DNA from: Phycisphaerae bacterium
Lineage (GTDB): Bacteria > Planctomycetota > Phycisphaerae > UBA1845 > JANYLN01
Length of the DNA stretch: 55,737 nucleotides
NCBI GenBank assembly: GCA_041687575.1
Contig: JAWLBS010000002.1
Location: 1-55,737, forward strand
Direction: 5' to 3'
The position numbers were made by a program, and so were the translations under genes. Each line of letters starts with the position of its first letter. The stretch's first letter is position 1. The notes under the pieces were generated by a model, which made no database searches, was not told where the DNA came from, and worked only from the letters and a program-made list of their open reading frames with translations. Positions 26,345 to 50,776 of this stretch are shown here, one piece after another.

Positions 26345-26368
26345 TCGCCGGGTGTACGAGGTGCAATC

Positions 26369-27268: not shown

Positions 27269-27271
27269 CCC

Positions 27272-27802: not shown

Positions 27803-28584
27803 GGCCTCGGACGCTGACATTGTGGCTGCCGGCGCTGGCGGCTGTGGGGCTCGTGCTGACTGTCGGATGCGGTCGGCAAGCCGCCCACCCCGCAGGGCAG
27901 AAGATCCAAACCGCATCCCTGGACGATTCGGACTGGCAGATGGGCCTGGATCGCCAGCCGACGGCCACGACCTGCTACGCGATGGCGCGGGTGATGGCGG
28001 CGCAAGGCAGGGACGCCCCCGCGGCGACGCTCTTGCAGCGGGTGCTGCAGATGGAGCCGGCCTACATGCCCGCCAGGGTCGCACTGGCGCAGGTGTACCT
28101 GCGGCAGCGTCAGCCCGAGCATGCAATGACGACGTTGACCGAGGGGCTGGCGCTGGCGCCTGACGACACGGTCCTGATCAACGACGTGGGAATGGTGCAT
28201 CTGTGGTGCGGGCGGCTGGCTGAGGCGCTCGAATCGTTCAGCCGGGCGGCCTCCCTGGCCCCGACGCAGGCCCGCTACCGCGCCAACCAGGCGATGGTTT
28301 TGGGAATGCTGGGGCGGTACGAAGAGTCGTTCGACGCATACTGCCGCGTGCTGTCTCCAGCTGACGCGCATCACAATCTGGCTGTCCTCTGTGAGGCCCG
28401 AAACGATCCCGAGCGGGCGAAACTCGAACGGCGGATGGCCTTGGCCGTGCAAAAGAGCGGGCAGCCCGGGCAGCGGGGGCGGTTCCTGGCCTCGTCGAGC
28501 CAACCGGCCGAAACTGCGTGCGATACGCGCCCAGCCGAACCGGCGAGCGCCACGCAGCCGGGGGCGGAGACATCTTCGCAGTGA
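27799..28584 (+). CDS. tadD: TPR-repeat lipoprotein, TadD-like
   Basis: Lipobox LVLTVGC, then 4-5 TPR-like repeats (ATLLQRVLQMEPAYMPARVALAQVYL…, EALESFSRAASLAPTQARY…). The true start lies inside the listed ORF 27265..28584. Confidence 0.7.
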   Translation: MRPRTLTLWLPALAAVGLVLTVGCGRQAAHPAGQKIQTASLDDSDWQMGLDRQPTATTCYAMARVMAAQGRDAPAATLLQRVLQMEPAYMPARVALAQVYLRQRQPEHAMTTLTEGLALAPDDTVLINDVGMVHLWCGRLAEALESFSRAASLAPTQARYRANQAMVLGMLGRYEESFDAYCRVLSPADAHHNLAVLCEARNDPERAKLERRMALAVQKSGQPGQRGRFLASSSQPAETACDTRPAEPASATQPGAETSSQ

Positions 28585-28618
28585 GGGCGGCCGAGCCGTG
28601 TTGTTCAGTCGGTCCGGC

Positions 28619-28785
28619 TTGCCCTCGCCCATCGGGGCTTCGATGATCGCCAGCCCGGGCTCTACCTCCACATCGGCGGCCTGCTCTGTCGCGGCCTGGA
28701 TAGGCCGGGGTTGGTAGCCGGACCAGATCTCGGTGAAGGCCGTACGATCCGCAAAGGTCAGTGGCGCCAGTCGCGTCATCAACAC
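28619..28785 (-). pseudogene. cas3: cas3 (type I-E) fragment covering ~56 aa up to helicase motif I
   Basis: FADRTAFTEIWSGYQPRPIQAATEQAADVEVEPGLAIIEAPMGEGK parallels the E. coli Cas3 segment I recall as GYQPRQLQ…APGLTVIEAPTGSGKTE. Homology stops right after GK, 35 nt from the tadD stop. Confidence 0.6.
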
Positions 28786-28939
28786 AGTGTGCCCACAGGG
28801 GGTGGGCGGGTTCGACTTCGCTCACGTCGCAGCAGCCTGACTGCCCAAGCCGACACGATTCATTCGCGTTCCTCGGAGATGAGAGTCGTAGTGTACGACC
28901 AATCTGCAGACTTTGCCGAACAGCTCGATCATCCCTGCG

Positions 28940-29484
28940 TCAGCGAGGCCCGCTGACGCAGTTCGACGGCGAGAGCGTCCGGTTGTGACCGTCGCCCGTC
29001 TCCCGTGCGATGGCGGCGGGAAGCTCATCAGCCAGGGCCGCCCCGACCGAAGCCAGAGGGATTTCGCGTCGCAGCAACTCGACCTGGCGGGCCCCGTCGA
29101 CAGTCCGCACGTCCAACCGGACCTTGGGGGCGGCACCATCGGATGGGCCAAGGACTTCAGAACTGCCCTCGACGAGGAAGGGCACCGTACGGTCGACAGC
29201 GTCGGAACCTGTCAGTTCCAGTTCCCGGCGGATGGCACGGGCCTCTTCCATCTCAATGACAGCGGTACCGGCAAGCGGGGACAATGCGTTGCCGGCAAGC
29301 CACATGAACGCCCCTGGTACCGGTCGTATTCATGCGTGAAGTTCCGGCAGGCGAACGGCGAGATGCCCGACTGCTGCAGCACGGGCGACGACAGCACCGC
29401 CCAACGGTTGTACGGCTTGGCGGCTGGACCACCTGCAAGCGAGCGGCCGTGTGCCGCCATCGGCATCAGCCCAGCCAGTATCAC
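28940..29484 (-). pseudogene. Decayed fourth copy of the giant-paralog N-terminal module (internal deletion + frameshift + truncation)
   Basis: One frame gives KPYNRWAVLSSPVLQQSGISP|FACRNFTHEYDRYQG. After a 1-nt shift near 29305, the next frame gives LSPLAGTAVIEMEEARAIRRELE … VPFLVEGSSEV. Compare copy A: YTRWAILSSPELQESG … VCRNFTHDYDRYQAGF … PGVAVIETEQARSIRRENE … LPLFVEGEYEI. Confidence 0.6.
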
Positions 29485-29641: not shown

Positions 29642-30715
29642 TTATTGGCTGTCAGCAGTGGTGTCCTTGGGTTTGTCCGGTAGCGTGTCGGCCAGGTGCT
29701 CGAGCAGGCGGATCCCGAGCGTGCGGCCAGTCTTCTGCAGGGCGGTCTTGCCGGCGATGTTTTCGGCCAGGTCGACCGCGCGGAGCGTCGCCTTGTCGGC
29801 GAAGACGGTCTTGCCGTCGGCCGGGCGGACCGCGCGGAGCTCGGTGCGGGCGGCGCAGGAGACCAGGTTGCCGATGCGGGCGGCGTATTCGCTGAAGGCC
29901 TCGCCGACGATGGCCAGATCGACACCAGGCAGCGGCTTGCCGCGACCACTGCTGGTGGCTGCACTCCAGCCGGCCAGGTCCTGCTCGGCGACATCGACGA
30001 CTTTGAACCCGCACGCCAGCAGCATGTTCTTCAGCTCGGTCTGCACGGCCGGGTCGATGGGCCTGGTGGGCATGGGGGTGATGTGCCGCTCGGTGACGAC
30101 GATCGCGACGGTCGGCAGCTGCTTGCCCGCCAGGCGCTGTTTGAGCTGGGGCAGCGGATCGGGGGTGATGTCGTCGCGGGCGACCAGCTTGTTGCCGCGG
30201 GTCATCAGCCGCTCGGAGACCTTCTCGACCAGGTCCATCATCATATCGCCGATGTCGCCGCCGGCGCCGCCCTTGACGAGCACGCCCTCGACCAGGCTGG
30301 TCTCGGTGCCGATGAGCTTGGCGGTGACGAACATCTTGTCGCCGAGCGGGAAGGCCTTGCCTGTGATGATCACCTTCGCCCCGACGAGCTTGCCGATCTG
30401 GATGGACTGCTCGGTGCTGACGGCGCCGGTCAGGGTGAGCTCCTGCTCGGTAAGCAGCCGGTCGAGAGAGGCGCGGTCGACCAGGGTGAACTCGCCCAGG
30501 CCGGACAGCGCGGCCGTCAGCAGCTCGGCGATCTGCCTGCCGAGCTCGGGATTGCCCGCCGAGGCGGCGTCGAAGTCCAGCACCGCCACAGGGATGCCCG
30601 TAACGGGCGGGGCGACGGGCTGACTGGCTGCACCGGGCGTCTGCGCGGTTGCGGCGGCATTCAGGCCGAACTGCATGACGACTGCGACCAAAGTTGCGAT
30701 GGCGGCACGTTTCAT
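29642..30715 (-). CDS. Exported two-domain protein with a CsgG/LpoB/FlgO-like pattern
   Basis: Signal peptide MKRAAIATLVAVVMQFGLNAAATAQ. Core pattern IPVAVLDFDAAS … LGRQIAELLTAALSGLGEFTLVDRASLDRLLTEQEL … IGKLVGAKVIITGK, with a second similar alpha/beta domain. Start overlaps the upstream stop (ATGA). Confidence 0.6.
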   Translation of the reverse strand: MKRAAIATLVAVVMQFGLNAAATAQTPGAASQPVAPPVTGIPVAVLDFDAASAGNPELGRQIAELLTAALSGLGEFTLVDRASLDRLLTEQELTLTGAVSTEQSIQIGKLVGAKVIITGKAFPLGDKMFVTAKLIGTETSLVEGVLVKGGAGGDIGDMMMDLVEKVSERLMTRGNKLVARDDITPDPLPQLKQRLAGKQLPTVAIVVTERHITPMPTRPIDPAVQTELKNMLLACGFKVVDVAEQDLAGWSAATSSGRGKPLPGVDLAIVGEAFSEYAARIGNLVSCAARTELRAVRPADGKTVFADKATLRAVDLAENIAGKTALQKTGRTLGIRLLEHLADTLPDKPKDTTADSQ

Positions 30716-31743
30716 CTGGCACCTCCCGGCAGCGCGATGACGGATGGCGCTGCCTTTTTCTGCGGAACGGGTTCAGGCCGGCGCTGGCTCGGTGGCGGCG
30801 TCGGCTCGGGTCGGGTAACAAGGTAATCCAAAGAGTTGCGCAGGAACAGCTGGCTGCGCGGGTCGTCCGTCCAGTCGCCAAAGGGCATCTGGCACAGCAC
30901 CAGCCGGCCCTTGCCGTCGCTGCGAACAACGAGCAGGGCGTCGGTGGGCACGGGCTCTTCGCCCGGGGTCTCGCGGGGCCAGCCGGCGACCACGAGGGCG
31001 GCTTCGTCGGCCGGCAGCTGCAGCGCCCAGAGGTTATCCTGCCCGAGCAGGAAGCTGCGCAGGGCCTGCCGGTCGAACTGGTGCAGCAGCGGGTGCTCGA
31101 GGTCGTACTCGATCCGCTGGGGCACCGGCCGGGCCAGCAGCGGGTAGCCCGCCAGCCGGTCGCGAACCTGCTGCTGGAACACCATCACGCTGCCGCCGCC
31201 GGTCACCTGGCCGAGCAGCGCGGCTTGCGCGAACGTCCGGTCGCTGATCCGGCCGGGGCCGACCAGGACAATCTCGGCCCTGGCGAACGCCAGCTGGTCG
31301 CCCTGTTGCACCCGGGTAAAGGCGATGCCGGCCTGCTCAAGGGCGGCGGGCAGGCCGTCGGAACTGTCCCAGACGACGAGCCGGCGGCCGGCCAGCCGCT
31401 GCTTCACGCCGGCCAGCAGGTCTTGCGGGTACGCATGGATCGTCTGGCTGCCGCGAGCGATCTCGCGGTCGTTGGCGAGCAGGCGCCAGTCCCACTGAAA
31501 CGCCGTGGGCACGCGAACCTCAGGCAGCGTGATGCGGATCGTGCTGGGCGGGTTGGCCGGATCGACCGCGACTACGCCGCTGGCCACGCCGATAGTCCCG
31601 AACGACAGGTCCCACGCCAACGCAGCCCGCGGCAGGTCGGCGTCGATCGCCCAGCGGGCATCGATCGTGCCGGTGCGGCCGCCGAACCAGTAGCCCTGGT
31701 TGCTGAGCACGAGGACCAGGATGGCACCGGCGGCGGTCATCAT
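30712..31743 (-). CDS. Membrane-anchored protein of unknown function (343 aa)
   Basis: N-terminal TM segment AAGAILVLVLS. Coupled by ATGA overlaps on both sides. No family recognised. Confidence 0.6.
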   Translation of the reverse strand: MMTAAGAILVLVLSNQGYWFGGRTGTIDARWAIDADLPRAALAWDLSFGTIGVASGVVAVDPANPPSTIRITLPEVRVPTAFQWDWRLLANDREIARGSQTIHAYPQDLLAGVKQRLAGRRLVVWDSSDGLPAALEQAGIAFTRVQQGDQLAFARAEIVLVGPGRISDRTFAQAALLGQVTGGGSVMVFQQQVRDRLAGYPLLARPVPQRIEYDLEHPLLHQFDRQALRSFLLGQDNLWALQLPADEAALVVAGWPRETPGEEPVPTDALLVVRSDGKGRLVLCQMPFGDWTDDPRSQLFLRNSLDYLVTRPEPTPPPSQRRPEPVPQKKAAPSVIALPGGAR

Positions 31744-32666
31744 TTCGGCTCCGCAGAAGAGGCCCGACTGAAGGCGATCTTGATCTGGTATTCGCCCGCC
31801 GAGGTGACCATCTGCCCGGCATTGAGCACGTCGCCCGGTCGGGCCTGCAGGCTGGTCGCGATCGCCGCGAGGGCCTCGCTGGGCTGGTTGAGCTTGAGCA
31901 GCTCCGCCCAGAGGCTCAGACGCGGGTTGTCCCCGGCCGTGGTGCCGATGTGGTAGCGCAGGTTGTGGCCGCTTGTGATGGGGACGGTCAGTTCGGCAGT
32001 CTGGCCGGCCACGACGACGAGATCGGCGTTGGAGACGATCGCGTCATTTTTCAGGACGGTCAGGCGAAGCAGCAGCAGCCGTGTCCGCATGGTCAGCGGG
32101 GCGGGAGCCAGCCCGACGTCGGAGGTGTGTTCGCCCGTGAGCATCCAGCTCGCCCGCTCGTCGAACGAGGCCGAGACCTGGTCGAAGGCCCGGACCTGCT
32201 GAGCAATCTCCTGGTCGGTGAACCGCAGGTTGGCGGAACTGGGGTTGGTCGGCGTTTCGGTCGTCATGCCCGAGACCGTTGCGACAGGGCGGCTGCCGGC
32301 GGATCGGGCGTACAGGCCCCAGCCGATCGCTGCCAGCGCCACCGAGGCGGCCAGGGCGGCGATCCGCAGAAACGGCAGGATGCGCGGACGCGGTTGCCAT
32401 GCGGCAGTCTGCGCGGCCGTCTCTTCCAGGTAGTCGGCAAGCCGGTGCTGGAAGGCGTCCCAGCCGAGTGCGGGCTCGGCCGATTCACTGGGCATGCCGA
32501 TCGTGGCGCGGAGGCGGTCGTAGTCGGCCAGTGCCTTGCGGCAGGCGGGGCAGTCGGCGGCGTGGGCGAGGATCCGGGCAAACCGGTCGCGCTGCCCCTG
32601 GTCCCAGTCCGTTTCCAGGAGGGCGGTCTGAATCGCGTCGCAGGTGAGGGGTTCGTGCGGCATCAT
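31740..32666 (-). CDS. Anti-sigma factor, zf-HC2 type with a TM segment and a ~190-aa extracytoplasmic domain
   Basis: H-x3-C-x2-C motif HAADCPAC, and TM segment ILPFLRIAALAASVALAAIGWGLY. The start ATG overlaps the sigma stop. Confidence 0.75.
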   Translation of the reverse strand: MMPHEPLTCDAIQTALLETDWDQGQRDRFARILAHAADCPACRKALADYDRLRATIGMPSESAEPALGWDAFQHRLADYLEETAAQTAAWQPRPRILPFLRIAALAASVALAAIGWGLYARSAGSRPVATVSGMTTETPTNPSSANLRFTDQEIAQQVRAFDQVSASFDERASWMLTGEHTSDVGLAPAPLTMRTRLLLLRLTVLKNDAIVSNADLVVVAGQTAELTVPITSGHNLRYHIGTTAGDNPRLSLWAELLKLNQPSEALAAIATSLQARPGDVLNAGQMVTSAGEYQIKIAFSRASSAEPK

Positions 32667-33184
32667 GCTTCCACCTGTACATCGATCAACAGCTCTCGCA
32701 GCCGGCTCAGCCCTTCGTGCAGGCGGCGCGAGACTTCCGAAGCACTGCAACCGAGAAGGTCGGCGACCTCGTTGCCCTTCAGGCCGTTCATGGTCCGCAG
32801 CACGACGACGAGGCGGACCGGTTCGGCCAGTTGCGTGAGGGCCTCCTCGACGACGGGCCGCAGGAGGGGCTCAGGACCGCCGTGGTGCATTTCGGCCTGC
32901 TGCCGGCAATCGGCGTGGACCTTCTGTTCGGTCTTGCGCCGCCGGGCGATCCGCAGGCTCTCGTTGACGACCACGCGGGCGATCCACGGCCGCAGAGCCC
33001 CGGCGTCGCGGATACTGTCGCGCTGCTGCCACGCCTTGAGCAGGGCCTGCTGGCAAACATCCTCTGCGGCGTGGGCGTCGCGCAGGACCCCGTACGCCAG
33101 GCGGAAGAACAGCCGGCTGTGCCGGGCGATCTGCTCGGCCAACAGCGACTTCCAGTAGATGTCGGGCGCCTCGCGTCCGTTCAC
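32663..33184 (-). CDS. ECF-type RNA polymerase sigma factor
   Basis: Region 2 LAYGVLRDAHAAEDVCQQALLKAW … PWIARVVVNESL, and region 4 GLKGNEVADLLGCSASEVSRRLHEGLSRLR. GTG start after AGGGAG. Confidence 0.85.
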   Translation of the reverse strand: MNGREAPDIYWKSLLAEQIARHSRLFFRLAYGVLRDAHAAEDVCQQALLKAWQQRDSIRDAGALRPWIARVVVNESLRIARRRKTEQKVHADCRQQAEMHHGGPEPLLRPVVEEALTQLAEPVRLVVVLRTMNGLKGNEVADLLGCSASEVSRRLHEGLSRLRELLIDVQVEA

Positions 33185-33508
33185 CGACAGACTCCCTCAC
33201 GTTGTTGCTACCTACAGGATGCACGAGCGGGGGGGATTTTTCCAGGGAATGGGCGGGATGGTGCTGCGGCAGGAGGGCGACGGTGGTTGTCGGCCGTCAG
33301 AGGGCGGGGCATATCTGTGGGACGAGACCGTCGTCGGCTGCCACCTGTGACCCGGCAGAATTCCTGTATTGTTTCCCGCAAATCCGCTATGCTTTGCGCA
33401 TCCGGATGGGTAGACAAGGTCGTGCCGGGAGCGCTCTGCGCGGGCAGGGCCCCGGGCAATCCGACACGTTTGTGATGATTTGCATCTCCAGAGTTCCGGG
33501 AGTCGCGC

Positions 33509-36500
33509 ATGCGCTTGATGTTGCTCACTACGATCGCCGCGGCAATGGCTGTCTTGTATCTGCCCGGTCCGGCCAGCGCCGGCGAACCGTACACCCGCTG
33601 GGCGATTCTGTCGTCGCCCGAGCTGCAGGAGTCCGGCCTGGCGGACCTGGTGACGGCCGAACTGTCGCAGGTGAAGGGGGTGCAGCTCGTCGAGCGCGAC
33701 CAGTTGGCGGCGGCGATGAAGGAGCTGGAGCTGGATGCCGTGCTGGGCGAGGCGGATGTGCGAGCGCGGCTGCGACTGGGGCGGCTGGTCAAGGCGGATG
33801 CGCTGATCGTCCTGACGACGGTCGCGGTGGCCCCGGAGGCATTGACCGAACAGCCGATAACTCCAGATGCGTCGGCGCTGACCGAGCCGGCCCGGCAGGC
33901 GGATCCCCTGGTGAGCACCGGGCAGGGCCGTCGCCGGCCATCGCGGTCCAGAACGTTCATCAAGATCGTGATCGCGGACTGCCAGCAGGGGGCCCGGCTG
34001 AGCATCGACTTTATCGCGCGCGAGCCGTCGCAGGAGGCCGACGCATCGCGTCGGGTGGTCCAGGCGGTCGAGCGGGCCCAGAGGCGGTTCCCCTCGGGCA
34101 TCGAGAAGGTGATCGGCCTGTCGCACTTTGTCTGCCGCAACTTCACGCATGACTATGACCGGTACCAGGCCGGCTTCGCCTACCTGCTGGAGAGCGGACT
34201 TTCGCGCATGCCGGGGGTGGCGGTCATCGAGACGGAGCAGGCCCGGTCGATCCGGCGCGAGAACGAGATGGCTGGCGACGACGGCGTCGCGCGGGTGCTG
34301 CCGCTGTTCGTCGAGGGCGAATACGAGATCGCCCGAACCGATGGCAGCGGCACAGAAGTTGTGACCATCGAGGTCCGCGTCCGTGACGGGGCCGGCCGGC
34401 AGCGGACGATCCGGCGGCAGGCCCTGGCAATGGCGGCGGCCGCCTCGTTCCTGGCATCGGAGTTGCCGGGGCAGGTCCTGGATTCGGCGGGGGCGTCGAG
34501 TCAGCCGTTTACGCCCGCCCAGCAGTTCGAGGCACTGGTGGCCAGGGCGGAGGCCTTCGCCCTGCTCGGCTCGTTCGAGGAAGCGGCGTGTCTGCGGGAG
34601 GCCGCTCTGCTGTTGGACCCGGACGCGTCGGACCAGCGGATCAAGGCGGTCGAGGAGTACACGCACACCGTCTGGGCGCCGCTGCCGGACGAGGTGAGCA
34701 AGTGGTGGGTCAATGAAAAGGCGTACCAGTCCGCCTGTGCGCATCGCATGGGGTACTGGCGGCTGGCGCTGGAGCACCTGGAGCGGGTGGTGGTGAACCA
34801 GAAGCTGGATCAACTGGTCGCTTTGCGCCTGGCCCGCAACCTGCTGTCCGAGTATCGGCACGCGGCGAAGGAGCAGTACGCCAGGTACGAGGATCTGCCA
34901 GCCATCGAGCAGGTGCGCCGGGCATTCCTGCTGAAGGTCTATCCCCGGATCCTGGACCTGCCTGTCCCGCAAATGGGGAAGGTAAAGCCCGCATATGCCA
35001 GGTACTTGCTCTATGGCTCGTGGAATGCGTTTCTTTTCGATGCTGCGTTCGCACCCTTTGCCGGAGAGCCTCTGGATATCTCGCGAGACGGCGACTTTAT
35101 GCTGCAGATTCTGAGAACGACGCGGCCGGACATTGGCCCCCCAAGCAGGAGTTGCATGATCTGCCTTGACAGGATCTCAGGGGCAGCCGTCGCCAGGGAG
35201 GATGCGCGGGCGGGATGGCTCGATTTCATTGACAAGCTGGCCAACTCGCAGGTGCCTCAGCGTGACCTGCTTGTCCGCTACTGTCGTCTCGTATACAAAA
35301 CCGCGTACTTCCACTCGCATCCGGATTCGGTCGATGCTGGTGCCTTGGCCGATGCTGATGCCCTGGTTGCCGATGGGAAGGCCTATCTGGACACTATTGA
35401 GGTCAGTTCTCATGCGCTCTTTATTACGAAAGTGGAAGGCTTGCGGGATATGCTGCAACGTTCTGTGAAACTCCAGGTGGGAGCAGAATCCGCAGCCTCT
35501 CAGCCTCCAGTGGAACCCGCCGCCACCCAGGCGTCTGATGGACTGGTCAGCCGGTTACGCTTCGTGCCGGTGGAGCTGAGGGTTCGTGAAGGGGACAGAC
35601 CGGATCCTCTCAACCAGCCCCTCCAGGAGATGTTCGACCACGTCTGGCGCTGCACGGATTCGCTCGACGTCTTCACCTCGCAGAGACGCGCCTACCTGAT
35701 GCGGACCCGGGGCCTGCTCGAGCCGCTCGCCCCGGATGAGGAGTACCGCGCCATGGATGTGAAGTGGGACGGGCGGTTCATCTGGATCGCCGTGCGGGAA
35801 AAGGGGCTCTGGGTGTTCCGCTCCGACGGGCGGCGACTGGCGCAGATCGGCGAGGCACAGGGGTTGCCGCCGATTGAACGCGATCGCGCTATCCCCGTGC
35901 GCCTGCACCCCCTCTCCCCGGGCCGGGTCCTGGCGATCGGCAATTACGGGCTGCACCGGCGGACGTGGTGCGCGGCGATTACGCTTGATAACGACGAGGC
36001 GGCCGTCAGCTTGATCTACACCGCCAAACGGGTCTTGCAGGAGCGGGAGGACCGCGAACCGTTCAGCCGAAGCCTCGATGTGATCTTCGTCCCGACCTGG
36101 CTGCTGCAGTGCCCGGACCCGCAGGACCCATCGCGGCAGGTCCTGCTTGTCGGCAGGCCGATCTTCCAAGACCCGCGCCGCCGGCAGGGGCCTGCCCTGC
36201 AAATCGATCTGCAGACGCTGAAGGTGTCCCTGACAGACTATGACGCACCATACGATGGTTTCTCGGCCGGGGGCGGGGTCTGGAGGATCTTCTCGTGGCA
36301 CCAGCCAAAACGCAGTGTGTTGTCCCAATGGCGCGGGCCGGGGAATGCCAACGAGCAGGACAAGATCTGGCGGACCCTAACGGAACTGCCGAACACCGAA
36401 TGCGCGCCGCCGTACTTCACCAACCAAACATTGCTTTGCGGAGACTGGCTGGTATGGAAGCGGGTCGCGTGGTCCCGTGTGAATATCAAGACAGGCCAGT

Positions 36501-36733
36501 TCGAGTGGCTGAATAAAGGGCTGTTGCCCGAGGATCGCCGCTTCTCCCATAACGGCATCTCCGGCCACTACGGCATTCTCTGCTGGGGCAGCTCGGTGTC
36601 GCAACCAGTGTACCAGGTCTTCGTCGAGGATTCGCCGACCATCCCGCTCGACGCGTGGGCGAACTTCGACCCGGATCTGGCTGTTCCCAGGCCAGTGCGT
36701 CGGAACCAGAACAAGCGAGAGGCCGACAAATGA
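33509..36733 (+). CDS. Giant exported modular protein, paralog A (1074 aa, one module)
   Basis: Signal peptide MRLMLLTTIAAAMAVLYLPGPASA. N-domain has RWAILSSP, LVERDQLAAAMKELEL and GRLVKADALIVL. It is followed by a helical TPR-like middle and a propeller-like C-terminal third (WDGRFIWIAVREKGLWVFRSDG…GLPP). Confidence 0.8.
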   Translation: MRLMLLTTIAAAMAVLYLPGPASAGEPYTRWAILSSPELQESGLADLVTAELSQVKGVQLVERDQLAAAMKELELDAVLGEADVRARLRLGRLVKADALIVLTTVAVAPEALTEQPITPDASALTEPARQADPLVSTGQGRRRPSRSRTFIKIVIADCQQGARLSIDFIAREPSQEADASRRVVQAVERAQRRFPSGIEKVIGLSHFVCRNFTHDYDRYQAGFAYLLESGLSRMPGVAVIETEQARSIRRENEMAGDDGVARVLPLFVEGEYEIARTDGSGTEVVTIEVRVRDGAGRQRTIRRQALAMAAAASFLASELPGQVLDSAGASSQPFTPAQQFEALVARAEAFALLGSFEEAACLREAALLLDPDASDQRIKAVEEYTHTVWAPLPDEVSKWWVNEKAYQSACAHRMGYWRLALEHLERVVVNQKLDQLVALRLARNLLSEYRHAAKEQYARYEDLPAIEQVRRAFLLKVYPRILDLPVPQMGKVKPAYARYLLYGSWNAFLFDAAFAPFAGEPLDISRDGDFMLQILRTTRPDIGPPSRSCMICLDRISGAAVAREDARAGWLDFIDKLANSQVPQRDLLVRYCRLVYKTAYFHSHPDSVDAGALADADALVADGKAYLDTIEVSSHALFITKVEGLRDMLQRSVKLQVGAESAASQPPVEPAATQASDGLVSRLRFVPVELRVREGDRPDPLNQPLQEMFDHVWRCTDSLDVFTSQRRAYLMRTRGLLEPLAPDEEYRAMDVKWDGRFIWIAVREKGLWVFRSDGRRLAQIGEAQGLPPIERDRAIPVRLHPLSPGRVLAIGNYGLHRRTWCAAITLDNDEAAVSLIYTAKRVLQEREDREPFSRSLDVIFVPTWLLQCPDPQDPSRQVLLVGRPIFQDPRRRQGPALQIDLQTLKVSLTDYDAPYDGFSAGGGVWRIFSWHQPKRSVLSQWRGPGNANEQDKIWRTLTELPNTECAPPYFTNQTLLCGDWLVWKRVAWSRVNIKTGQFEWLNKGLLPEDRRFSHNGISGHYGILCWGSSVSQPVYQVFVEDSPTIPLDAWANFDPDLAVPRPVRRNQNKREADK

Positions 36734-39700
36734 GGGCGCTGCACGCAGTACGGATTGTCTTGTGGATTGCTCTGCTACCCGCGGGCGCTTTCGCGGCCGA
36801 ACCTGATTCGGGCCTCTCTCGCTGGGCAATCATCGCAAGCCCCGACGCCCGGGCCGACGGAATGGATGACCTGTTGACGGCCGCGATGAGCGAGCAGGAG
36901 GGGCTGTACCTGCTGGAACGCGACCGCTTGGAGGCGCTGCTGGACGAGGCCTCCCTGCAGCAGGTGCTGGGGGGCGACGACGTGGCCGGCCGGCTGCGGG
37001 TGGGCCGGCTGCTGCGGGCCGATGCGCTGATCCTGCTGCGGGTCGAGGCGAATCCGGCCGCCGCGGCGAGGGCGGCGGATCGGGAGGATGGATCGTCGCC
37101 GGTGACGGACGATCGTAGCCAGGCGCCACCGGCAGCAGCCAATGGCAGCAAGGGACCGCCGACCGCCGGCGCAGACGGCGGGGAGGCGTCGGCCGAAGGC
37201 GGCGCGGCAGACGTGCCCGAAAGGCTGCTCCGCGTGGTCATCAGCGACTGCCGGCAGGGCGCCCGGCTGCGGACGGAATATCTCCCCTACCGGCAGGAGG
37301 ACGTGCCGGAGCTGGTCGGCCGGATCGGGCGGATGGTCCGCCAGGTCCGCGAGCAGTTCCCTGCCGGCGTGCAGCGGATGATCGGGGTGGCCCCGCTGGT
37401 GTGCCGCAACCTGGTCCACGACTACAACCAGTACCAGGACGGCTTCGCGCAGCTGCTGGGCAGCGCCCTGACCTCGCCGGGCACGGCGGTGATCGAGGTG
37501 CAGGAGGCCCGGGCGATCAGTCGGGAACGGGCCCTGCCGGGCGAGGCGGGCATCCAGCGGGTCGTGCCGCTGCTCGTCGAGGGCGAGTACGAGGTGCTGC
37601 GGCCGGAGACGGCGGCAGCGGCGACTGGACCTGCGGGCGTAGTGCCAACCGCTGCAAAGCCTGCAACCGAGGGGGCGGCGGCGACAGAGCCTGCTGGACA
37701 GGGGGCAGATGCGACAAGGCCTGCGGACGATGCGTCGGCCACCACGCAACCCGCTTCCAACCTTGCTTCGCGGGGCGAGCCCCATGTACGGCTGTCGATC
37801 CGGCTGGTGCGCGACGACGACGCGGTGCAGGCCCTGGACACAACCCTTCCGCTGGCACTGGCGGGGCAGTTTTTCGCCCAGCAGGTTGCGCCAACCATCC
37901 TGAAGGCGACCGGTGGTGCGGGGGCGGCTTCCCTTTCCCCGCAGGTCCAGGCTACGCGTCTTGGCGCTCGCGCCGAGACCTTCTCGCGCCTGGGCATGTA
38001 CCGCCAGGCGATCGGCCTGCGCGAGGCGGTGCTGCTGATCGACCCGGACGCCCACGCCCAGCGCGTGGAGCTGCTGGATGACTATGTGCAGGACGTGAAA
38101 GTGCCGCTGTCGCAGCAGCCGGAATTCTTGCGAAACGCCCATCGCCGCAAGCCGCTGTCAGCAGAGATGGTGGCCGCCCACGACGCCTGGTGCGCCGCGA
38201 GGGTCGGCCTGTTCCAGTGCTGCATGAACCACCTGGAGTACCTGGTCCGTCACCGCGGGGTCACGCGTCGTGCCGCGGTGTTGCTGACCGACGCGATATT
38301 CCGTATCGCCCCCGCGGTGGCCAGGGAGCACCTTGATCGGGTCCGGCCGCTGCTGACCCCGCTCGAGCCGCAGAAGAAGCGGTTCCTGGCGGAGGTCTAC
38401 CCGCAGATCCTCACGCTCGACGTGGAGGGCGACGATGCCGGCGCCCGCAGCCTCGCCAAGAACCTGGCGACGCATCACTGGCGGGGAACGCTGATCGACT
38501 GGTGCTTCTTTCGCTTGGACGGCCTGACGGCTGGCAAGGAGGACCTGGACTTCGCCTTTGAGATGCTGACGGCGACGCCGGCCGCCCACAGCGCGCGGTT
38601 CCTGGGCCTGGCCGGCCTCATGAAGTGGCAGGAGATGGCCCTGCAGCGCATTCCCTACTCGGACCCCGGCACCAGCGGTCGGATGGGCGACTCCGCGGGA
38701 TGGCGATACACGCACGAGGAGTACCTCGACTTCTGCCAGCGCCTCGTCGGGACGGCCAAGCCTTGGCTCGTCATATACGGGCGTTACGGGTTGCTGGAGC
38801 GGGCGTTTGCCAAGGCGAGCCCGGCCCGACAGGTCGACCAGGAGATGCTCGCCGAGGCAGATGCCCTGGTGGACCTGTATATCGATGTTCAGAAACGGTC
38901 CGGCAAGTCCTACATCGTCCGCGACGACGATATCATCCAGCTGCGCGACCGAATCCGCGAGGCCCTGGCCGATACGCCGATCGCCGCGCCGGCGGCCGCG
39001 GCTTCACAGTCGGTGACAGTGGCTTCCGCGGGGGTGGCGGATCGGCCGGACGAGCAATTGGGCGAACCATACCTGCCGCAGGTGCTCTATCGGCCGATCG
39101 ACATTTCGGTTGAAGCGGCGGCAAAGCTGAAGGGCCCGAAAACGCCCTACACGTCTTCTGCGAACGAACCGTCGAAACCGCTGCTGCCCGGCAAGCGCCT
39201 GCGGGTGCGGCAGTGCGGTCCGGACGTGGATGTCTATTTGACCACGGAGACCGTTGCCATCATGCGGCAGAAGGGGCGCCTGGAGGTGGTCTACCGCGAC
39301 GAGCGCGGCCGCGTCAGTGACGCCTGCTGGGACGGCGAGCGGGTCTGGGTGGCGTCGGTGGGGGACGGGTTGTTCGTACTGACCCCGGACGGGGACGGGT
39401 TTCACCTCGCTGATGAGAACATCCCGTATTCGTGGATCGACGTCCATCTGCAGCCTCTGGGGCCGGGTCGGGCCCTGGCGGTATTCCTGTACAGCGAGAC
39501 GTTCCGCCTGCAGGTGCTGCTGCTGGAATCGACCGGGCGGAAGCTGCGGGTCCGGCCGCTGCCGGTCGAGCCGGCGCCGTCGGCGCCTGAAGAACGACGC
39601 GACTCCGACAGGCGATGGGACCAGTGGTATCCGCCGCTGTCGTGCGTGGTGCATGCGGCTGGCACGGATCCTGTACTGCTGATCGGCGAGCGCAACTCCC

Positions 39701-42700
39701 GGGCGCCGGGTCTGCCGCTGGCGGTCGACATGGAGACCCTGCAGGTCGCTCCGGCTGACTGGGGGCAGGGCCCGGACCGGTTGCTGTACAGCTCGGGCGA
39801 GGCCCTCTGGGGGTGCACCGGCGGCCAGCTCTACCGCGGCGTGTGTCCGGCAGGGACCCCGCTGCGCGACACGCGGTGGGAGGTGGTCTACGATTGGCCG
39901 GCCTTGCATCCCCAGTATGGCTACGGCAGATCGATCACGCCATTCCGCGTGGTCCGTCCGGAGGGCGACGGGGTCTATGCCTACTGCGGACAGTGGTATC
40001 GGATCCAGCCGGGCGGCATGTTCCACGAGCTAATCGAGCCAATGCCGGTCGGCGGCGAGCGGCCTCGCATCGAGGTCATGCGCTGCGTGGATAGCGCGTA
40101 CTATGGCAAGCTCCTGCTGGCCCGGGACGATCGGGTCTGGCAGGTCGAACTCCGGGAACCCCGCCGGCCCGCGACCGGGCCGGGCGAGCCCCTGCGCTGG
40201 GCGGTCCTGACCGATTCGATCGGCCGCGAGTACGGCATGAGGAAGTACTTCGCCGACGGGTTGCCGGATGCCGCAGGCTCGTCCTCGCCGCCGATCTACA
40301 TGCAGGTGGATCTGAAAGACTTCGAGGCCGCCGCAGCCGATGGGTTCGCCGTTCGCCGCGGATTCGCTGGCGCCTGTCGGGCGGACCTGCTGCTGATCGT
40401 CCAGGACTACGAAGTCGACGCTTCGGAATCGTCCAACCGGTGGGGCGTCGCCGAACAAGGGTATCGACTCTCCGTCTACGACGGCCGCACGGGGATTCGC
40501 CTGCTGACGGAGAAGGCGGCTGCTGTGCGCAACAAGATGCAGGAGCGGATGCAAGGGGCTGCCGCCGTGCTGCGCCGGCTGGTCACGCAAATCGGCGGGC
40601 GCCCCGTCCGCGTGGTGGGGGTTGGGCCGCTGGAGACGGACGACACGTTCAACCAGAGCCTGTCCGCGGGCGTAAGCGAGCTGCTCGCCCTCATGACGTC
40701 CAGCCGTACGGACGCGATCTCTATCGACCCGCAGGAGGTCCGACCTGCACTGACCGAGAAGATCGAGTCGGCGGCGGGGCGCTGCCAGGTTCACCCGGTC
40801 CTGGTCGAGTTGGCATGTACTGCCGGCCAGCAGGATGAGGAGCAGCAGTCCTTGGCGATCCGATTGCGGATCCGGGATTCGCAAACCGAGCGCTCGGCGG
40901 ATCTGTCCGGCTCGCCGCGGGAGGTGCTGCTGCAGGCATGGCGGGAGATGGTCGATGCCGCGCCGCACGGGCACGCGTACCCTGACGAATCGAAAGCCCT
41001 CGACGACGCCCTGCAGGTCCTGCTGGCCAGGGCCGGGCAGTGCATCGAGCGCGAGGATCGCGAAACCGGCTGTGCCATGCTGGAGGCGTACCTGCTCGTC
41101 CGGCCGGACGCAGCCGACGTCCGCGCGCAGTTCCTCCTGGAGCAGGGGGCCCTGCTGGCGACGCCGCCGGCGTGGCAGGTACGCAAGCAGCGGCCCCTCG
41201 CCGAGTACCAGCGATGGACGCGCCGGCAGGCGGATCGCTGGCAGGCGATGGTGCAGCAGTACCGGCTGGCGCTGCGCCGCGACCAGATCAGTTTCGAGTC
41301 GGCCGGGCGGCTTCTCGACATGGTCATGGACCTGCCCGGGGCGACCGGCTGGGGACGCGATCTCCCCTTGGTGGCCGACCAGCGGCGACGCCTGATCCTG
41401 GAGGTCATGCCGCTGATCGAAGGGCTGTCTCATTCGGACGACCGGAATCGGTACGCCGGCCGGTTCCTGTACGCGTACCTGCTGAATCAGGCCGTCAGGA
41501 CACCGTCAGGGCGATACACCCGCGAGGACCTCTCGTGCATCCTCCGCCTGATGACGGACGTGTTGCCGGGGGTCTTCGGTGCGGCCCTGCCTGAACGTCT
41601 GGCGCAAAGGGACCCGTGGCCCGGCGTGGACGAGGCTTGCCAGCGGGAGTTTCTCCACTCCCTGCTCACTTCGAAAGCCCCGGCCGCCGTCCTGATGGGC
41701 AGGTGGGCCGGCCTGTGCCGGCGGTACTATGCAAAGCAGTTCGACCAGGTCCTGCTGCAGGACATCGATGTCCTGGCGGCCGACCACCAGGCGTTCCTGA
41801 AGACCAGCCCCGACAACAGGAGTCCCGGCGACCTTGGCGGCGATCTGCAGGCGCTGCGCTGGCGGGTAGAGGCGGGGCTGGCGGGCAAGGTCACCGCGAC
41901 GAGCCCGCCGGTGTTCGCCGCGACAAGGACGCTGGGGCCCCAGATCGAGTTCCACCCGATCGACCTGCGGGTCCGCCGGCTTTCCGGCAAGACCGTGCCG
42001 TTCGAGGAGGTAGCCAGAGAGTTCCCCGTTGTCCACCGGTTCCGTGCCAGCCGGATGCATCTCCATCGGTGCGATGACACGACCGACCTGCTCTACAGCC
42101 GGCGGCACGTGCTGGTGATGCGGCAACCGGGGCTGGCCGACGAGGTGTTCGTCGATGAGGGCGACTCGATCACGGACGCCTGCTGGGACGGCCGGAACAT
42201 CTGGGTTGCATACGGAAAGCAGGCGCGCATCGCTGTCATCTCGGGCGATGGAAAGCGTGTCGGCGAATTTGGCGAACCGCAGGGACTCCCGCCGGCTGAC
42301 AAGGCCCTGCTGCTGTGCCCGCTCGGACAGGGGCGGGTCTTCGCCTGCGGTGCATTCGGCGAGCCGGTTCGCTCGTGGTGTGCGGTCCTGGACCTGGCGG
42401 GCCCCGGCGTGCGGGTCCTTCACCGGGCGACCGGAGTGGTGGATCCGCGCACCAGCCAAGGGCAGATGACCTACGGCGGCACCGACGAAGAGAAACGCCG
42501 GAGACTCGAGGGGCCTCCGATCGACACGGCCTTCTTTCCCATCTGGCTGCTGCCGTTGACCCGACCGGGGCAGAGCGCTCCCGAGGCGGTGCTCGTCGGT
42601 CGCAGCCCAAACGACAACGGCCTCAGCAGCATCTGGCCGCTTCGGGTCGACCTGGACGGGGACGTGTCGTGCTTTGACGTGCAGTACGATTTCCCGCTGC

Positions 42701-43197
42701 CGCACAGTCTCCGCCGTATCGCCAGCGGGGGGTACCTGTGGGCGACCGGCGGCTCCTCGATGTGGCAGTGGGCAGGCCCGAATCGCCACTGGCCGGACGG
42801 GCTCGCCTGGCGACAGGTGCTCCAGCGCCGCCTCTGGAGCGCGTCGCAGCTGACCAACCAAAGCGTTCAGACGGGCGAGACGGTCCTGCCGCTGGGCGAT
42901 CGCGTGTACGTGGCTGGCTGCAAGGTACTCCACGTCGAAAACCACAGGGCAAGCGCCATCGGCACCGCCTGGGCCGCGTGCGATCCGGCCGAGGCCACGT
43001 GCCGGCTGCTGTTGCCGGCGCCGCTCGAGCAGGGAGGCATGGGCGGCATCAGCGTCCACTACGGGCTTGTCGGCTGGGGGTGGGATCGCCGCGCGGCAGC
43101 ATCTCAACAAGAAATCCAGAGGGGCGGCGACCCGAAGCCCCCGCCGTTCAGGCTGTACCGCGTGACGGTGGGCGACGAAGGGGAGCCGGGTCCATGA
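36730..43197 (+). CDS. Giant exported modular protein, paralog B (2155 aa, two modules fused)
   Basis: The start ATG overlaps the stop of A (ATGA). Signal peptide MRALHAVRIVLWIALLPAGAFA. Module B1 begins SRWAIIASP. A second module begins at LRWAVLTDS near 40190. Both modules end in propeller-like regions (CWDGERVWVAS…, CWDGRNIWVAY…). Confidence 0.8.
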   Translation: MRALHAVRIVLWIALLPAGAFAAEPDSGLSRWAIIASPDARADGMDDLLTAAMSEQEGLYLLERDRLEALLDEASLQQVLGGDDVAGRLRVGRLLRADALILLRVEANPAAAARAADREDGSSPVTDDRSQAPPAAANGSKGPPTAGADGGEASAEGGAADVPERLLRVVISDCRQGARLRTEYLPYRQEDVPELVGRIGRMVRQVREQFPAGVQRMIGVAPLVCRNLVHDYNQYQDGFAQLLGSALTSPGTAVIEVQEARAISRERALPGEAGIQRVVPLLVEGEYEVLRPETAAAATGPAGVVPTAAKPATEGAAATEPAGQGADATRPADDASATTQPASNLASRGEPHVRLSIRLVRDDDAVQALDTTLPLALAGQFFAQQVAPTILKATGGAGAASLSPQVQATRLGARAETFSRLGMYRQAIGLREAVLLIDPDAHAQRVELLDDYVQDVKVPLSQQPEFLRNAHRRKPLSAEMVAAHDAWCAARVGLFQCCMNHLEYLVRHRGVTRRAAVLLTDAIFRIAPAVAREHLDRVRPLLTPLEPQKKRFLAEVYPQILTLDVEGDDAGARSLAKNLATHHWRGTLIDWCFFRLDGLTAGKEDLDFAFEMLTATPAAHSARFLGLAGLMKWQEMALQRIPYSDPGTSGRMGDSAGWRYTHEEYLDFCQRLVGTAKPWLVIYGRYGLLERAFAKASPARQVDQEMLAEADALVDLYIDVQKRSGKSYIVRDDDIIQLRDRIREALADTPIAAPAAAASQSVTVASAGVADRPDEQLGEPYLPQVLYRPIDISVEAAAKLKGPKTPYTSSANEPSKPLLPGKRLRVRQCGPDVDVYLTTETVAIMRQKGRLEVVYRDERGRVSDACWDGERVWVASVGDGLFVLTPDGDGFHLADENIPYSWIDVHLQPLGPGRALAVFLYSETFRLQVLLLESTGRKLRVRPLPVEPAPSAPEERRDSDRRWDQWYPPLSCVVHAAGTDPVLLIGERNSRAPGLPLAVDMETLQVAPADWGQGPDRLLYSSGEALWGCTGGQLYRGVCPAGTPLRDTRWEVVYDWPALHPQYGYGRSITPFRVVRPEGDGVYAYCGQWYRIQPGGMFHELIEPMPVGGERPRIEVMRCVDSAYYGKLLLARDDRVWQVELREPRRPATGPGEPLRWAVLTDSIGREYGMRKYFADGLPDAAGSSSPPIYMQVDLKDFEAAAADGFAVRRGFAGACRADLLLIVQDYEVDASESSNRWGVAEQGYRLSVYDGRTGIRLLTEKAAAVRNKMQERMQGAAAVLRRLVTQIGGRPVRVVGVGPLETDDTFNQSLSAGVSELLALMTSSRTDAISIDPQEVRPALTEKIESAAGRCQVHPVLVELACTAGQQDEEQQSLAIRLRIRDSQTERSADLSGSPREVLLQAWREMVDAAPHGHAYPDESKALDDALQVLLARAGQCIEREDRETGCAMLEAYLLVRPDAADVRAQFLLEQGALLATPPAWQVRKQRPLAEYQRWTRRQADRWQAMVQQYRLALRRDQISFESAGRLLDMVMDLPGATGWGRDLPLVADQRRRLILEVMPLIEGLSHSDDRNRYAGRFLYAYLLNQAVRTPSGRYTREDLSCILRLMTDVLPGVFGAALPERLAQRDPWPGVDEACQREFLHSLLTSKAPAAVLMGRWAGLCRRYYAKQFDQVLLQDIDVLAADHQAFLKTSPDNRSPGDLGGDLQALRWRVEAGLAGKVTATSPPVFAATRTLGPQIEFHPIDLRVRRLSGKTVPFEEVAREFPVVHRFRASRMHLHRCDDTTDLLYSRRHVLVMRQPGLADEVFVDEGDSITDACWDGRNIWVAYGKQARIAVISGDGKRVGEFGEPQGLPPADKALLLCPLGQGRVFACGAFGEPVRSWCAVLDLAGPGVRVLHRATGVVDPRTSQGQMTYGGTDEEKRRRLEGPPIDTAFFPIWLLPLTRPGQSAPEAVLVGRSPNDNGLSSIWPLRVDLDGDVSCFDVQYDFPLPHSLRRIASGGYLWATGGSSMWQWAGPNRHWPDGLAWRQVLQRRLWSASQLTNQSVQTGETVLPLGDRVYVAGCKVLHVENHRASAIGTAWAACDPAEATCRLLLPAPLEQGGMGGISVHYGLVGWGWDRRAAASQQEIQRGGDPKPPPFRLYRVTVGDEGEPGP
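36908..37485 (+). repeat. Direct repeat copy 1 (578 bp, identical to 43372..43949)
   Basis: Compared line by line by eye with no mismatch seen. The duplicated antisense ORFs in the track (36830..37129 = 43294..43593; 37142..37381 = 43606..43845) give identical peptides. Confidence 0.9.
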
Positions 43198-44018
43198 GGA
43201 TGGCATTCGTGGTGTGGGGCGTCTTGTGTACCCCCTTGCTGCCCGTCGGCGCTTTCGCGGCCGAGCCGGGTTCGTCCCTGTCGCGTTGGGCGATCATAGC
43301 GAGTCCCGACGTGCGGGTCGATGGACTGGACGATGTGCTGACGGCCGCGCTGAACGAGCAGAAGGATCTCGACCTGCTGGAACGCGACCGCTTGGAGGCG
43401 CTGCTGGACGAGGCCTCCCTGCAGCAGGTGCTGGGGGGCGACGACGTGGCCGGCCGGCTGCGGGTGGGCCGGCTGCTGCGGGCCGATGCGCTGATCCTGC
43501 TGCGGGTCGAGGCGAATCCGGCCGCCGCGGCGAGGGCGGCGGATCGGGAGGATGGATCGTCGCCGGTGACGGACGATCGTAGCCAGGCGCCACCGGCAGC
43601 AGCCAATGGCAGCAAGGGACCGCCGACCGCCGGCGCAGACGGCGGGGAGGCGTCGGCCGAAGGCGGCGCGGCAGACGTGCCCGAAAGGCTGCTCCGCGTG
43701 GTCATCAGCGACTGCCGGCAGGGCGCCCGGCTGCGGACGGAATATCTCCCCTACCGGCAGGAGGACGTGCCGGAGCTGGTCGGCCGGATCGGGCGGATGG
43801 TCCGCCAGGTCCGCGAGCAGTTCCCTGCCGGCGTGCAGCGGATGATCGGGGTGGCCCCGCTGGTGTGCCGCAACCTGGTCCACGACTACAACCAGTACCA
43901 GGACGGCTTCGCGCAGCTGCTGGGCAGCGCCCTGACCTCGCCGGGCACGCGCAGGCTGGCGTGGCACGCTCGGCGACTTGCCTTTTGTGAACGAAGCGGA
44001 AGAGGTCCTCGGCGGTGA
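43194..44018 (+). pseudogene. Truncated paralog C (274 aa; only the N-terminal ~250 aa of a module)
   Basis: The start ATG overlaps the stop of B (ATGA). It has its own diverged signal peptide and first ~60 aa. It is then nucleotide-identical to B for 578 bp, and homology ends abruptly at 43949, followed by 23 unrelated codons and a stop. Confidence 0.7.
43372..43949 (+). repeat. Direct repeat copy 2 (578 bp, offset 6464 bp from copy 1)
   Basis: As for copy 1. The flanks diverge on both sides: about three-quarters identity upstream, and unrelated sequence downstream. Confidence 0.9.
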
Positions 44019-50751: not shown

Positions 50752-50776
50752 CCGCTCTTTAGCGAAAGGGTTTCGT

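Follow-up and report, generated by a model that had tools for sequence, protein, structure and literature searches.

The 55,737-nt stretch of Phycisphaerae bacterium DNA analysed in this work (contig JAWLBS010000002.1, hereafter the window) carries a real, previously unnamed planctomycete gene cluster, in which the gene for an extracytoplasmic function (ECF) sigma factor stands beside genes for very large exported proteins. Four genes, encoding the sigma factor, an anti-sigma factor, and two further proteins of 343 aa and 357 aa, form a core on the minus strand, while the giant paralogs A and B, and a truncated paralog C, are encoded divergently on the plus strand. There is, in our judgement, an even chance that the cluster specifies a sigma-controlled periplasmic scaffold, docked via an N-terminal domain (N-domain) that its members share. 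The regulatory frame of sigma and anti-sigma factors, and the individual folds, are of already known kinds. What is undescribed, in the libraries and literature searched, is the family of modules from which the giants are built, the 343-aa family, the sensor domain of the anti-sigma factor, and their conserved combination. An earlier sequence-only reading of this DNA had been unable to place the architecture in any characterised family, and Pfam, NCBIfam, the PDB, Foldseek, PADLOC and the literature likewise provided no confident assignment.

Seven open reading frames (ORFs) make up the locus, each lying where the sequence-only reading had drawn it:

29642-30715, minus strand: gene for the 357-aa protein
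30712-31743, minus strand: gene for the 343-aa protein
31740-32666, minus strand: anti-sigma factor gene, 308 aa
32663-33184, minus strand: ECF sigma factor gene, 173 aa
33509-36733, plus strand: paralog A, 1074 aa
36730-43197, plus strand: paralog B
43194-44018, plus strand: paralog C, 274 aa

The tight coupling proposed for these genes is borne out by an ATGA overlap at every one of the five gene junctions. The GC content is ~0.62-0.70 across the window (in 2-kb windows), and that of third codon positions (GC3) is 0.81-0.90 in the ORFs of the locus, which is the codon-position pattern of genuine genes.

The linkage of the giants to a unit encoding a sigma factor, an anti-sigma factor and a CsgG-like protein is kept in other organisms, and this is seen from either of two starting proteins. 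Firstly, searches from the giant protein, including one with a seven-sequence alignment, recovered 20 distinct loci. A sigma gene adjoins the family gene in 11 (L007, L008, L010, L014, L016, L017, L020, L022/25, L023, L024 and L013, with the core lying upstream on the same contig in the last), and several of the remaining loci are too short to judge whether one is present. Secondly, a search from the 343-aa protein found the order of sigma factor, ~300-aa protein, 343-aa homologue and CsgG-like protein of ~350 aa in seven of nine loci (L032, L033, L034, L036, L037, L038 and L040), with the sigma and CsgG-like calls coming from the precomputed Pfam annotation of gene lists. Large N-domain proteins are encoded co-directionally downstream in six of these seven (L032, L033, L034, L037, L038 and L040, not L036); of the other two loci, L035 lacks the sigma gene and L039 is degraded. 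Short intergenic gaps, such as the 4 nt in L008, point to co-transcription. Many independent assemblies contain tandem arrays, with two to four or more paralogs each. At most loci, the genes for the giants come after that for the 357-like protein and share its strand; A and B of the window are instead on the divergent side, an arrangement also seen in the short locus L023.

The genes downstream of the core vary between loci, encoding either giants with an N-domain, a helical region and a C-terminal propeller (N-H-C), or N-domain proteins with other tails. In L033 (12151-19158), the products of the downstream genes, 584 aa and 1746 aa long, both have ankyrin repeats, and the larger also retains the CsgG-like N subdomain; it is unusual to find such repeats in an exported bacterial protein encoded behind this core. 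L035 encodes a small CsgG/FlgO-like domain plus TPR, and two N-only paralogs elsewhere have weak TPR matches. In the degraded L039, the gene just upstream of that for the 343-aa homologue (8612-9934) has a 440-aa product with sigma-70 regions 2 and 4, which could be a fusion of sigma and anti-sigma factors or the result of a mis-called gene; the 357-like gene is broken into two fragments, and there are IS110-family transposases nearby.

The giants are built from one module, as A, both halves of B and the start of C are mutually alignable. The modules of A and B are 24-31% identical to each other, and to outside homologues, along their whole length (24% for the second module of B against A). 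The module runs from a signal peptide through a double alpha/beta N-domain and an all-helical solenoid to a beta-propeller, with the following layout in A:

N-terminus of A: signal peptide
residues ~28-326 of A: N-domain
residues 336-662 of A: helical solenoid
residues 683-1040 of A: beta-propeller

The signal peptides anticipated for A, B and C are present as signal-type hydrophobic segments, and signal-type N-termini are also found in family members elsewhere. The N-domain motifs picked out by the sequence-only reading, together with those of the later regions, can be read in the window proteins (RWAI, LVERD, GRLxxADAL, DCxxGARL, CRNxxHDYxxYQ, AVIExxEAR, PLxVEGEYE, LREAxLLxDPDA and WDGxxxW), and their retention in 68 homologues from other organisms means they do not reflect chance. 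In the alignment of these 68 sequences R87, G161, E251, D754, G755 and W759 are invariant, and W31, A32, Q220 and W753 nearly so. The second N subdomain contains a loop, (S/C)(R/K)NLxHDYDHLQ at residues 209-223 of A, in which Q220 is kept in 67, D217 in 61 and H214 in 53 of the 68 sequences. This loop, which is absent from the 357-aa protein and from the second module of B, is a possible candidate for a ligand- or metal-binding site.

This family is both large and concentrated in one phylum. An exhaustive search of 1.84 billion cluster representatives with a hidden Markov model (HMM) identified 3093 representatives at E<=1e-3, 1742 at E<=1e-10 and 946 at E<=1e-30, with the best 150 matches all at E <1e-159 and nearly all spanning most of the profile. 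A word-indexed homology search returned the same nine proteins from A as from an 11-sequence profile. The N-H-C order is found in 142 of the 155 top members; a C-terminal extension of >150 residues is present in 67 of the 155 proteins examined, and in four aligned members this consists of leucine-rich repeats (LRR). Mean pairwise identity within the N-H-C family is 36% in the N-domain, 28% in the propeller and 22% in the helical region. Matches in genomes came from metagenome-assembled genomes (MAGs) of Phycisphaerae and Planctomycetaceae, and the named sources of the gene cluster are almost only Planctomycetota.

Apart from CsgG, which the N-domain matches only in part and at scores from below threshold to borderline, no Pfam or NCBIfam family is matched by A or B, and a search of PDB sequences with A found nothing significant. 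The folds were read from an AlphaFold2 model of A, based on the 68-sequence alignment (mean predicted local distance difference test score, pLDDT, 82.1; predicted template modelling score, pTM, 0.80). In this model the N-domain forms two alpha/beta subdomains (~28-195 and ~196-326), with a disordered insert at 110-145. The fifteen long helices modelled at 336-662, combined with the lack of any Pfam TPR match in A or B at E<=0.1, identify the helical region as an alpha-solenoid. Hence the description of this part as helical and TPR-like stands as regards its helices, while its TPR character at the sequence level does not. The C-terminal part, with ~30 beta-strands at 683-1040 (pLDDT mostly 80-98), is predicted to be a beta-propeller of ~7 blades, as estimated from the strand count. 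Here too the propeller expected by the sequence-only reading was recovered in both AlphaFold and Foldseek results, although the WDG...W repeats on which that expectation was founded were not, there being one WDG...W per module.

Searching the PDB with the whole model of A using Foldseek returned only beta-propellers, and these weakly (E~1e-4 to 1e-5; query template modelling score, TMq, <= 0.21), comprising BamB (8pz2_B, 4.8e-5; 5ljo_B), TolB (7mx5_B, 1.8e-4), DPP4, WD40 proteins, Sec12 and the clathrin N-terminal domain. The presence of BamB and TolB among the best matches raises the alternative that the giants are divergent envelope-integrity or outer-membrane-biogenesis factors of a housekeeping kind, duplicated in planctomycetes, and that the sigma factor is an ordinary envelope-stress regulator. 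Such proteins would resemble the giants in being periplasmic, as Sec export of the latter is predicted, and an alpha/beta domain followed by a propeller recalls TolB in particular. The 357-aa protein also has weak Pfam matches to TolB_N and LpoB (as well as to FlgO). Yet the TM-scores are low, identity is 10-12%, and generic WD40 and DPP4 propellers score equally well; the propellers of TolB and BamB have six and eight blades respectively. An inserted solenoid of ~330 residues and a second alpha/beta subdomain are further departures from TolB, no PD40 or PQQ repeat families were detected by Pfam, and no tol-pal or bam genes are adjacent. Membership of TolB itself was rejected, given a score of 14.3 bits against a cut-off of 343 for TIGR02800, the absence of PD40, a Foldseek match (E=1.8e-4, TMq 0.16) that is fold-level only, and the lack of tol-pal neighbours. 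Moreover, the copy number, pseudogenes, variable arms and sigma linkage of the cluster genes are unlike those of a housekeeping factor, making this alternative improbable.

The copies of the module in the window depart from the canonical arrangement in three ways. Firstly, B joins two complete modules in a single reading frame, the second beginning at residue ~1156 (nt ~40195), with only ~12 residues between the end of the first propeller and the second RWAV motif at residue 1156. No double module of this kind was seen in the 155 best family representatives. Both halves of B are recognised by the domain HMMs:

36730-40194, plus strand: module 1 of B, with signal peptide, N (4e-89), H (7e-107) and C (4e-83)
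40195-43197, plus strand: module 2 of B, without signal peptide and more diverged, with N (7e-61), H (2e-81) and C (1e-107)

Secondly, C consists of a signal peptide and ~250 residues of N-domain, followed by unrelated sequence, in agreement with its earlier description as truncated. Over its first 178 nt, C shares 71% identity with B, and this rises to 100% over the following 578 nt (43372-43949 = 36908-37485), after which the similarity ends abruptly and the ORF stops 23 codons later; the family HMM found no family remnant downstream of C. The pattern of identity looks like gene conversion plus deletion, or partial duplication, and is also a possible assembly hazard. Thirdly, a decayed paralog lies downstream of the 357-aa gene, outside the locus as the sequence-only reading had delimited it:

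28964-29472, minus strand: decayed fourth paralog, D

D contains inverted repeats matching the RWAI and CRNFTHDY regions of A. The family HMM (E=1.3e-30) aligns its profile positions 14-47 joined to 167-186, then 190-302 in another frame, indicating an internal deletion, a frameshift, and the loss of the helical and propeller parts. D reads as the remnant of an N-domain gene in the canonical slot behind the 357-aa gene. The local copy of the cluster is hence in flux, with a fused B, a truncated C and a decayed canonical downstream paralog.

These irregularities might instead be artefacts, if the array, or the double length of B and the truncation of C, had been produced by metagenomic mis-assembly across paralogs. 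The window is one entire 55,737-nt contig, and identical tracts such as the 578 nt shared by B and C, with its abrupt end, can cause chimeric joins. However, the tandem arrays are found in many independent assemblies; A and the two modules of B, being only 24-31% identical, would not be confused by an assembler; the junction between the modules of B is in frame, within unique sequence; and the coding statistics of the ORFs are uniform. This makes artefact the least credible of the explanations considered, and extremely unlikely.

The N-domain connects the giants to the core. The 357-aa protein matches Pfam CsgG above the gathering threshold (2.6e-10) over residues 41-120, corresponding to model positions 10-97 of 210. 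The same stretch of the N-domain reaches 21.3 bits in C, against a cut-off of 20.8, and falls below it in B, at 15.9 bits; several paralogs elsewhere also match CsgG there, and across the 357-aa proteins and the giants the CsgG matches reach 4e-15. The similarity goes beyond this stretch: alignments to the 357-aa protein and its orthologues cover both subdomains of the giants' N-domain in full, identifying the 357-aa protein as a free-standing copy of the N-domain. Hence the resemblance suspected between the two is strengthened by a whole-domain alignment, an N-domain HMM match to the 357-aa protein (E=5e-5), and the Pfam CsgG match common to both. Orthologues of the 357-aa protein occupy the same position in 12 other loci (L008, L010, L020, L022/L025, L024, L032-L038 and, according to its gene list, L040).

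The sequence-only reading regarded the 357-aa protein as exported and CsgG/LpoB-like. The N-terminal hydrophobic segment (residues 4-24) and the ~80-residue Pfam CsgG match uphold this, although a CsgG-type component is not what was found. The signal peptide, MKRAAIATLVAVVMQFGLNAAATAQTP, has no Cys and no lipobox, and among the orthologues read only that of L010 has a lipobox (of LIGC type). Whether in the 357-aa protein, in its orthologues or in the giants, all CsgG matches lie within model positions ~10-105 of 210, presumably leaving uncovered the part of the Pfam model that holds the channel-forming hairpins. No csgA, csgB, csgE or csgF curli genes were seen among the neighbours in the window or the related loci. 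The partial match, missing lipobox Cys and lack of curli genes together mean the 357-aa protein is not a CsgG channel, and its membership of that family was rejected on the same three grounds. Membership of LpoB was likewise rejected, at 14 bits against 110.6 for NCBIfam TIGR02722, 16.6 against 22.3 for Pfam LpoB, and E=0.29 for LpoB in the PDB. PDB sequences gave nothing significant with either the 357-aa protein or the N-domain profile; with a profile of the 357-aa family, the top sensible matches were LpoB (E=0.29) and CsgG (~1), both non-significant and covering the same ~80 residues.

What the 357-aa protein and every giant share with the CsgG/LpoB/TolB_N/FlgO superfamily is a pattern in the first subdomain, A..L.D.L...L.....LVER..L..L..E..L......G.L.GA. 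The cluster domain differs from these proteins in that only ~80 residues are matched, with the CsgG match stopping well short; in that most copies are without a lipobox; in being tandemly duplicated, and fused to a solenoid and propeller; and in a context without curli, PBP1B or Tol-Pal genes. These differences bear on a curli-like alternative, in which the 357-aa protein would be a CsgG-type outer-membrane channel exporting the large paralogs to the surface. This would accommodate the above-threshold CsgG matches of the 357-aa protein and its orthologues, and the signal peptides of the giants. It is nevertheless very unlikely, given the half-length match, the absence of a lipoprotein Cys from the window protein and most orthologues, and the lack of csgE/F/A/B-like genes nearby. 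Furthermore, the alignment of the 357-aa protein with the soluble N-domain of A leaves no part of the former uncovered, the AlphaFold model of that domain has no long hairpins, and the putative substrates would be large, folded, multi-domain proteins.

Regulation of the cluster by its own sigma factor is suggested by both the proteins and the DNA between the two units. The 173-aa protein is an ECF (group 4) sigma-70 factor, as the sequence-only reading had concluded, with regions 2 and 4 only, and neither 1.1 nor 3 (Pfam Sigma70_r2 3e-13, Sigma70_r4_2 2.5e-8 and Sigma70_ECF 1.2e-5; NCBIfam TIGR02937 71.4 bits against a cut-off of 42.9). Its gene overlaps that of the anti-sigma factor by ATGA, and a gene is found in the same position at 12 other loci in the locus tables. 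The anti-sigma factor has the cytoplasmic motif H35-x3-C39-x2-C42, plus C9, followed by a single hydrophobic (transmembrane) helix at residues 95-120 and then ~190 residues. This combination of HxxxCxxC and one transmembrane helix fits an anti-sigma factor. The zf-HC2 family named in the sequence-only reading, PF13490, did not reach a reportable score in the window protein (no match at E<=0.1), and was sub-threshold in two orthologues (0.04-0.06); the NCBIfam 'anti-sigma' match is weak (2.5e-4). The motif is kept within the close clade, and orthologues of the distant clade are without those Cys and His residues. The remaining ~190 aa form a predicted periplasmic domain that is specific to this cluster; it can be aligned across both clades, with the homologous domain aligned for eight of the 12 other loci.

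The 324-nt intergenic region at 33185-33508 contains two copies of a promoter-like motif, each facing its operon:

33218-33239, minus strand: candidate ECF-type promoter of the sigma operon, AAATCC-N12-GCATC, ~35 nt upstream of the sigma start
33380-33402, plus strand: candidate ECF-type promoter of the A-B-C operon, AAATCC-N13-GCATC, ~105 nt upstream of the ATG of A

These are the only two matches to AAATCC-N12/13-GCATC in the 55.7-kb window. Shuffled windows had a mean of 0.29 matches, with two being reached in four of 100 shuffles. Partly independent support for the candidate promoter comes from orthologous sigma genes in other loci: that of L032 is preceded by the same motif, that of L036 by a version shorter by one base, and that of L033 by a weaker match. 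An automated dyad search over four sigma upstream regions gave only a doubtful TCTGCC/GCCGA pair. The pair of motifs in the window fits an autoregulated ECF promoter that would also drive A-B-C.

The fourth core component, the 343-aa protein, matches no Pfam, NCBIfam or PADLOC family. Its 52 homologues, from MAGs of Planctomycetales and Phycisphaeraceae, are all 'hypothetical' where named. One cluster member of this family is labelled as coming from a Porticoccaceae (Gammaproteobacteria) MAG, all others being Planctomycetota; this is probably a binning error, with horizontal transfer as the alternative. The AlphaFold model (pLDDT 93.8, pTM 0.89) has an N-terminal immunoglobulin (Ig)-like beta-sandwich at residues 9-105, then an alpha/beta domain at 120-310, and only the sandwich had Foldseek matches (Ig-like domains of glycoside hydrolase family 2, macroglobulin domains and a carbohydrate-binding module). 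The sequence-only reading had described this protein as membrane-anchored, which is contradicted by the absence of any hydrophobic segment qualifying as a membrane anchor or signal peptide; the model places its hydrophobic N-terminal run in the sandwich, as the first strand. Homologues of the distant clade have a clear cleavable signal peptide ahead of the same strand.

In the scaffold reading that we favour, an envelope signal would cause the anti-sigma factor to release the sigma factor, which would then drive both its own operon and the divergent A-B-C operon, as suggested by the operon structure and the shared promoter-like motif. The 357-aa protein and the large paralogs may then assemble through the N-domain, either within the periplasm or at the outer membrane, on its inner face. 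By analogy, the N-domain could serve as a common docking or oligomerisation module: CsgG, LpoB and the TolB N-domain are periplasmic parts of envelope machines, so that a member of their superfamily may act similarly, and a docking role accords with this being the best-conserved part of the family, of which the core encodes a free-standing copy. Macromolecules of the envelope, or imported ones, would be bound by the solenoid and propeller arms, which vary. The giants are probably binding scaffolds rather than enzymes, as no enzymatic family was detected in any cluster component by Pfam, NCBIfam or PADLOC. An anti-phage defence role was dropped after PADLOC defence models gave no match to five proteins of the cluster at E<=0.01. 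In having solenoid and propeller modules without an enzymatic domain, and in their paralog expansion, domain swapping, fusion and decay, the giants resemble modular TPR, ankyrin, LRR and WD40 scaffold proteins generally. However, all of them share one N-terminal double domain and a four-gene regulatory core, which makes them a defined system and not a loose architectural class.

Five observations weigh against the scaffold reading. Firstly, the CsgG/LpoB homology of the N-domain is limited to ~80 residues, and is non-significant against PDB sequences. Secondly, the AAATCC...GCATC motif was spotted by eye in the same sequences in which it was then checked, making the shuffle statistic post hoc. 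Thirdly, this motif is absent upstream of the distant-clade sigma genes examined. Fourthly, the 343-aa protein of the window clade has no recognisable signal peptide, whereas its distant homologues do. Fifthly, three giant-protein loci with long (10-kb) flanks, L001, L004 and L019, have no sigma gene in view, meaning giants can occur outside the cluster.

The regulatory core can also be read as the input of the system. It is possible, although we think it unlikely, that the large paralogs act together with the 343-aa and 357-aa proteins upstream of the anti-sigma factor, as sensors of periplasmic ligands or as co-receptors, with the arms capturing different ligands and signalling this to the periplasmic domain of the anti-sigma factor, and the main regulon lying elsewhere in the genome. 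RseB acts on RseA, and FecA on FecR, and the layout of the four-gene core resembles that of rpoE-rseA-rseB-rseC. The cluster-specific periplasmic domain of the anti-sigma factor is conserved along with the other genes, the variable repeat arms look like ligand-binding modules, and there is no enzymatic output protein in the cluster. Nevertheless, sensors are normally scarce, and arrays of two to four or more paralogs of ~1000 aa better suit structural or binding proteins. The three loci without a nearby sigma gene also count against this alternative, and the shared promoter motif suggests the giants are part of the sigma factor's output, although feedback would still be compatible with it.

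The parallel with rpoE-rseA-rseB-rseC and FecI-FecR-FecA is nonetheless close as regards the regulatory frame. In each, a group-4 sigma factor is translationally coupled to a single-pass anti-sigma factor with HxxxCxxC and a periplasmic domain, and two further accessory genes are co-transcribed; as in autoregulated ECF operons, the sigma gene is itself preceded by a candidate promoter. Differences lie in what is attached to this frame. The 343-aa protein, the 357-aa protein and the periplasmic domain of the anti-sigma factor match no described family, there is no TonB-dependent transducer as in Fec, and the linked genes are arrays encoding repeat-scaffold proteins of ~1000 aa. No description of an ECF group with a CsgG-like neighbour was found in the literature searched, and nothing there links ECF factors, CsgG and Planctomycetes.

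The genes surrounding the locus do not extend the cluster. Directly upstream is a Tad/Flp pilus set at 17055-28584, comprising a TadG-like gene (17055-18425, minus strand) and plus-strand genes for RcpC/CpaB, a secretin, a CpaE-like ATPase, a CpaF-type T2SSE ATPase, two TadB/C-type T2SSF proteins and a TPR protein. A functional link to this operon was rejected, as Tad genes accompany the cluster in no other locus, and the adjacency is probably a coincidence. Between the TPR gene and the decayed paralog, at ~28618-28800 on the minus strand, is a short open stretch reading PRPIQAATEQAADVEVEPGLAIIEAPMGEGK, which resembles a DEAD/DEAH-type helicase in its N-terminal Walker-A region, and is an apparent gene fragment. 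A second ECF-type sigma gene (14862-15416, minus strand; Sigma70_r2 and r4_2) is unrelated, its product being only ~27% identical to the cluster sigma factor. Downstream of the locus are genes for a heparinase II/III-like protein (44519-46381, minus strand) and a protein with a GHL6/beta-galactosidase-trimerisation domain (50573-52780, plus strand); these relate to polysaccharide degradation, are typical of planctomycetes, and have no link to the cluster that could be seen.

This work defines a widespread family of ~1000-aa exported proteins and a five-component cluster, and with them three candidate new domain families: the N-H-C module, the 343-aa family, and the periplasmic domain of the anti-sigma factor. 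The presence of an identifiable regulator and a candidate promoter makes the family experimentally tractable. It also exemplifies the combination of one docking-type domain with interchangeable binding arms. The planctomycete envelope is atypical and poorly understood, and a very large share of planctomycete genes are hypothetical. A bolder version of the scaffold reading, put forward only tentatively, is that the cluster specifies a distinct, phylum-specific envelope apparatus, in which an oligomeric platform of CsgG fold, periplasmic or associated with the outer membrane, would carry interchangeable solenoid, propeller, LRR or ankyrin arms, and would be built on demand under a sigma/anti-sigma switch, with the periplasmic domain of the anti-sigma factor and the 343-aa protein reading the envelope signal. 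Unusual macromolecule uptake and an enlarged periplasm have been reported in planctomycetes, and such an arm-swapping scaffold, if real, could connect to both. The cluster is relevant to both planctomycete cell biology and ECF signalling: if there is no physical assembly, a well-delimited ECF regulon remains, and if there is one in the envelope, it would be a new component of planctomycete cell biology.

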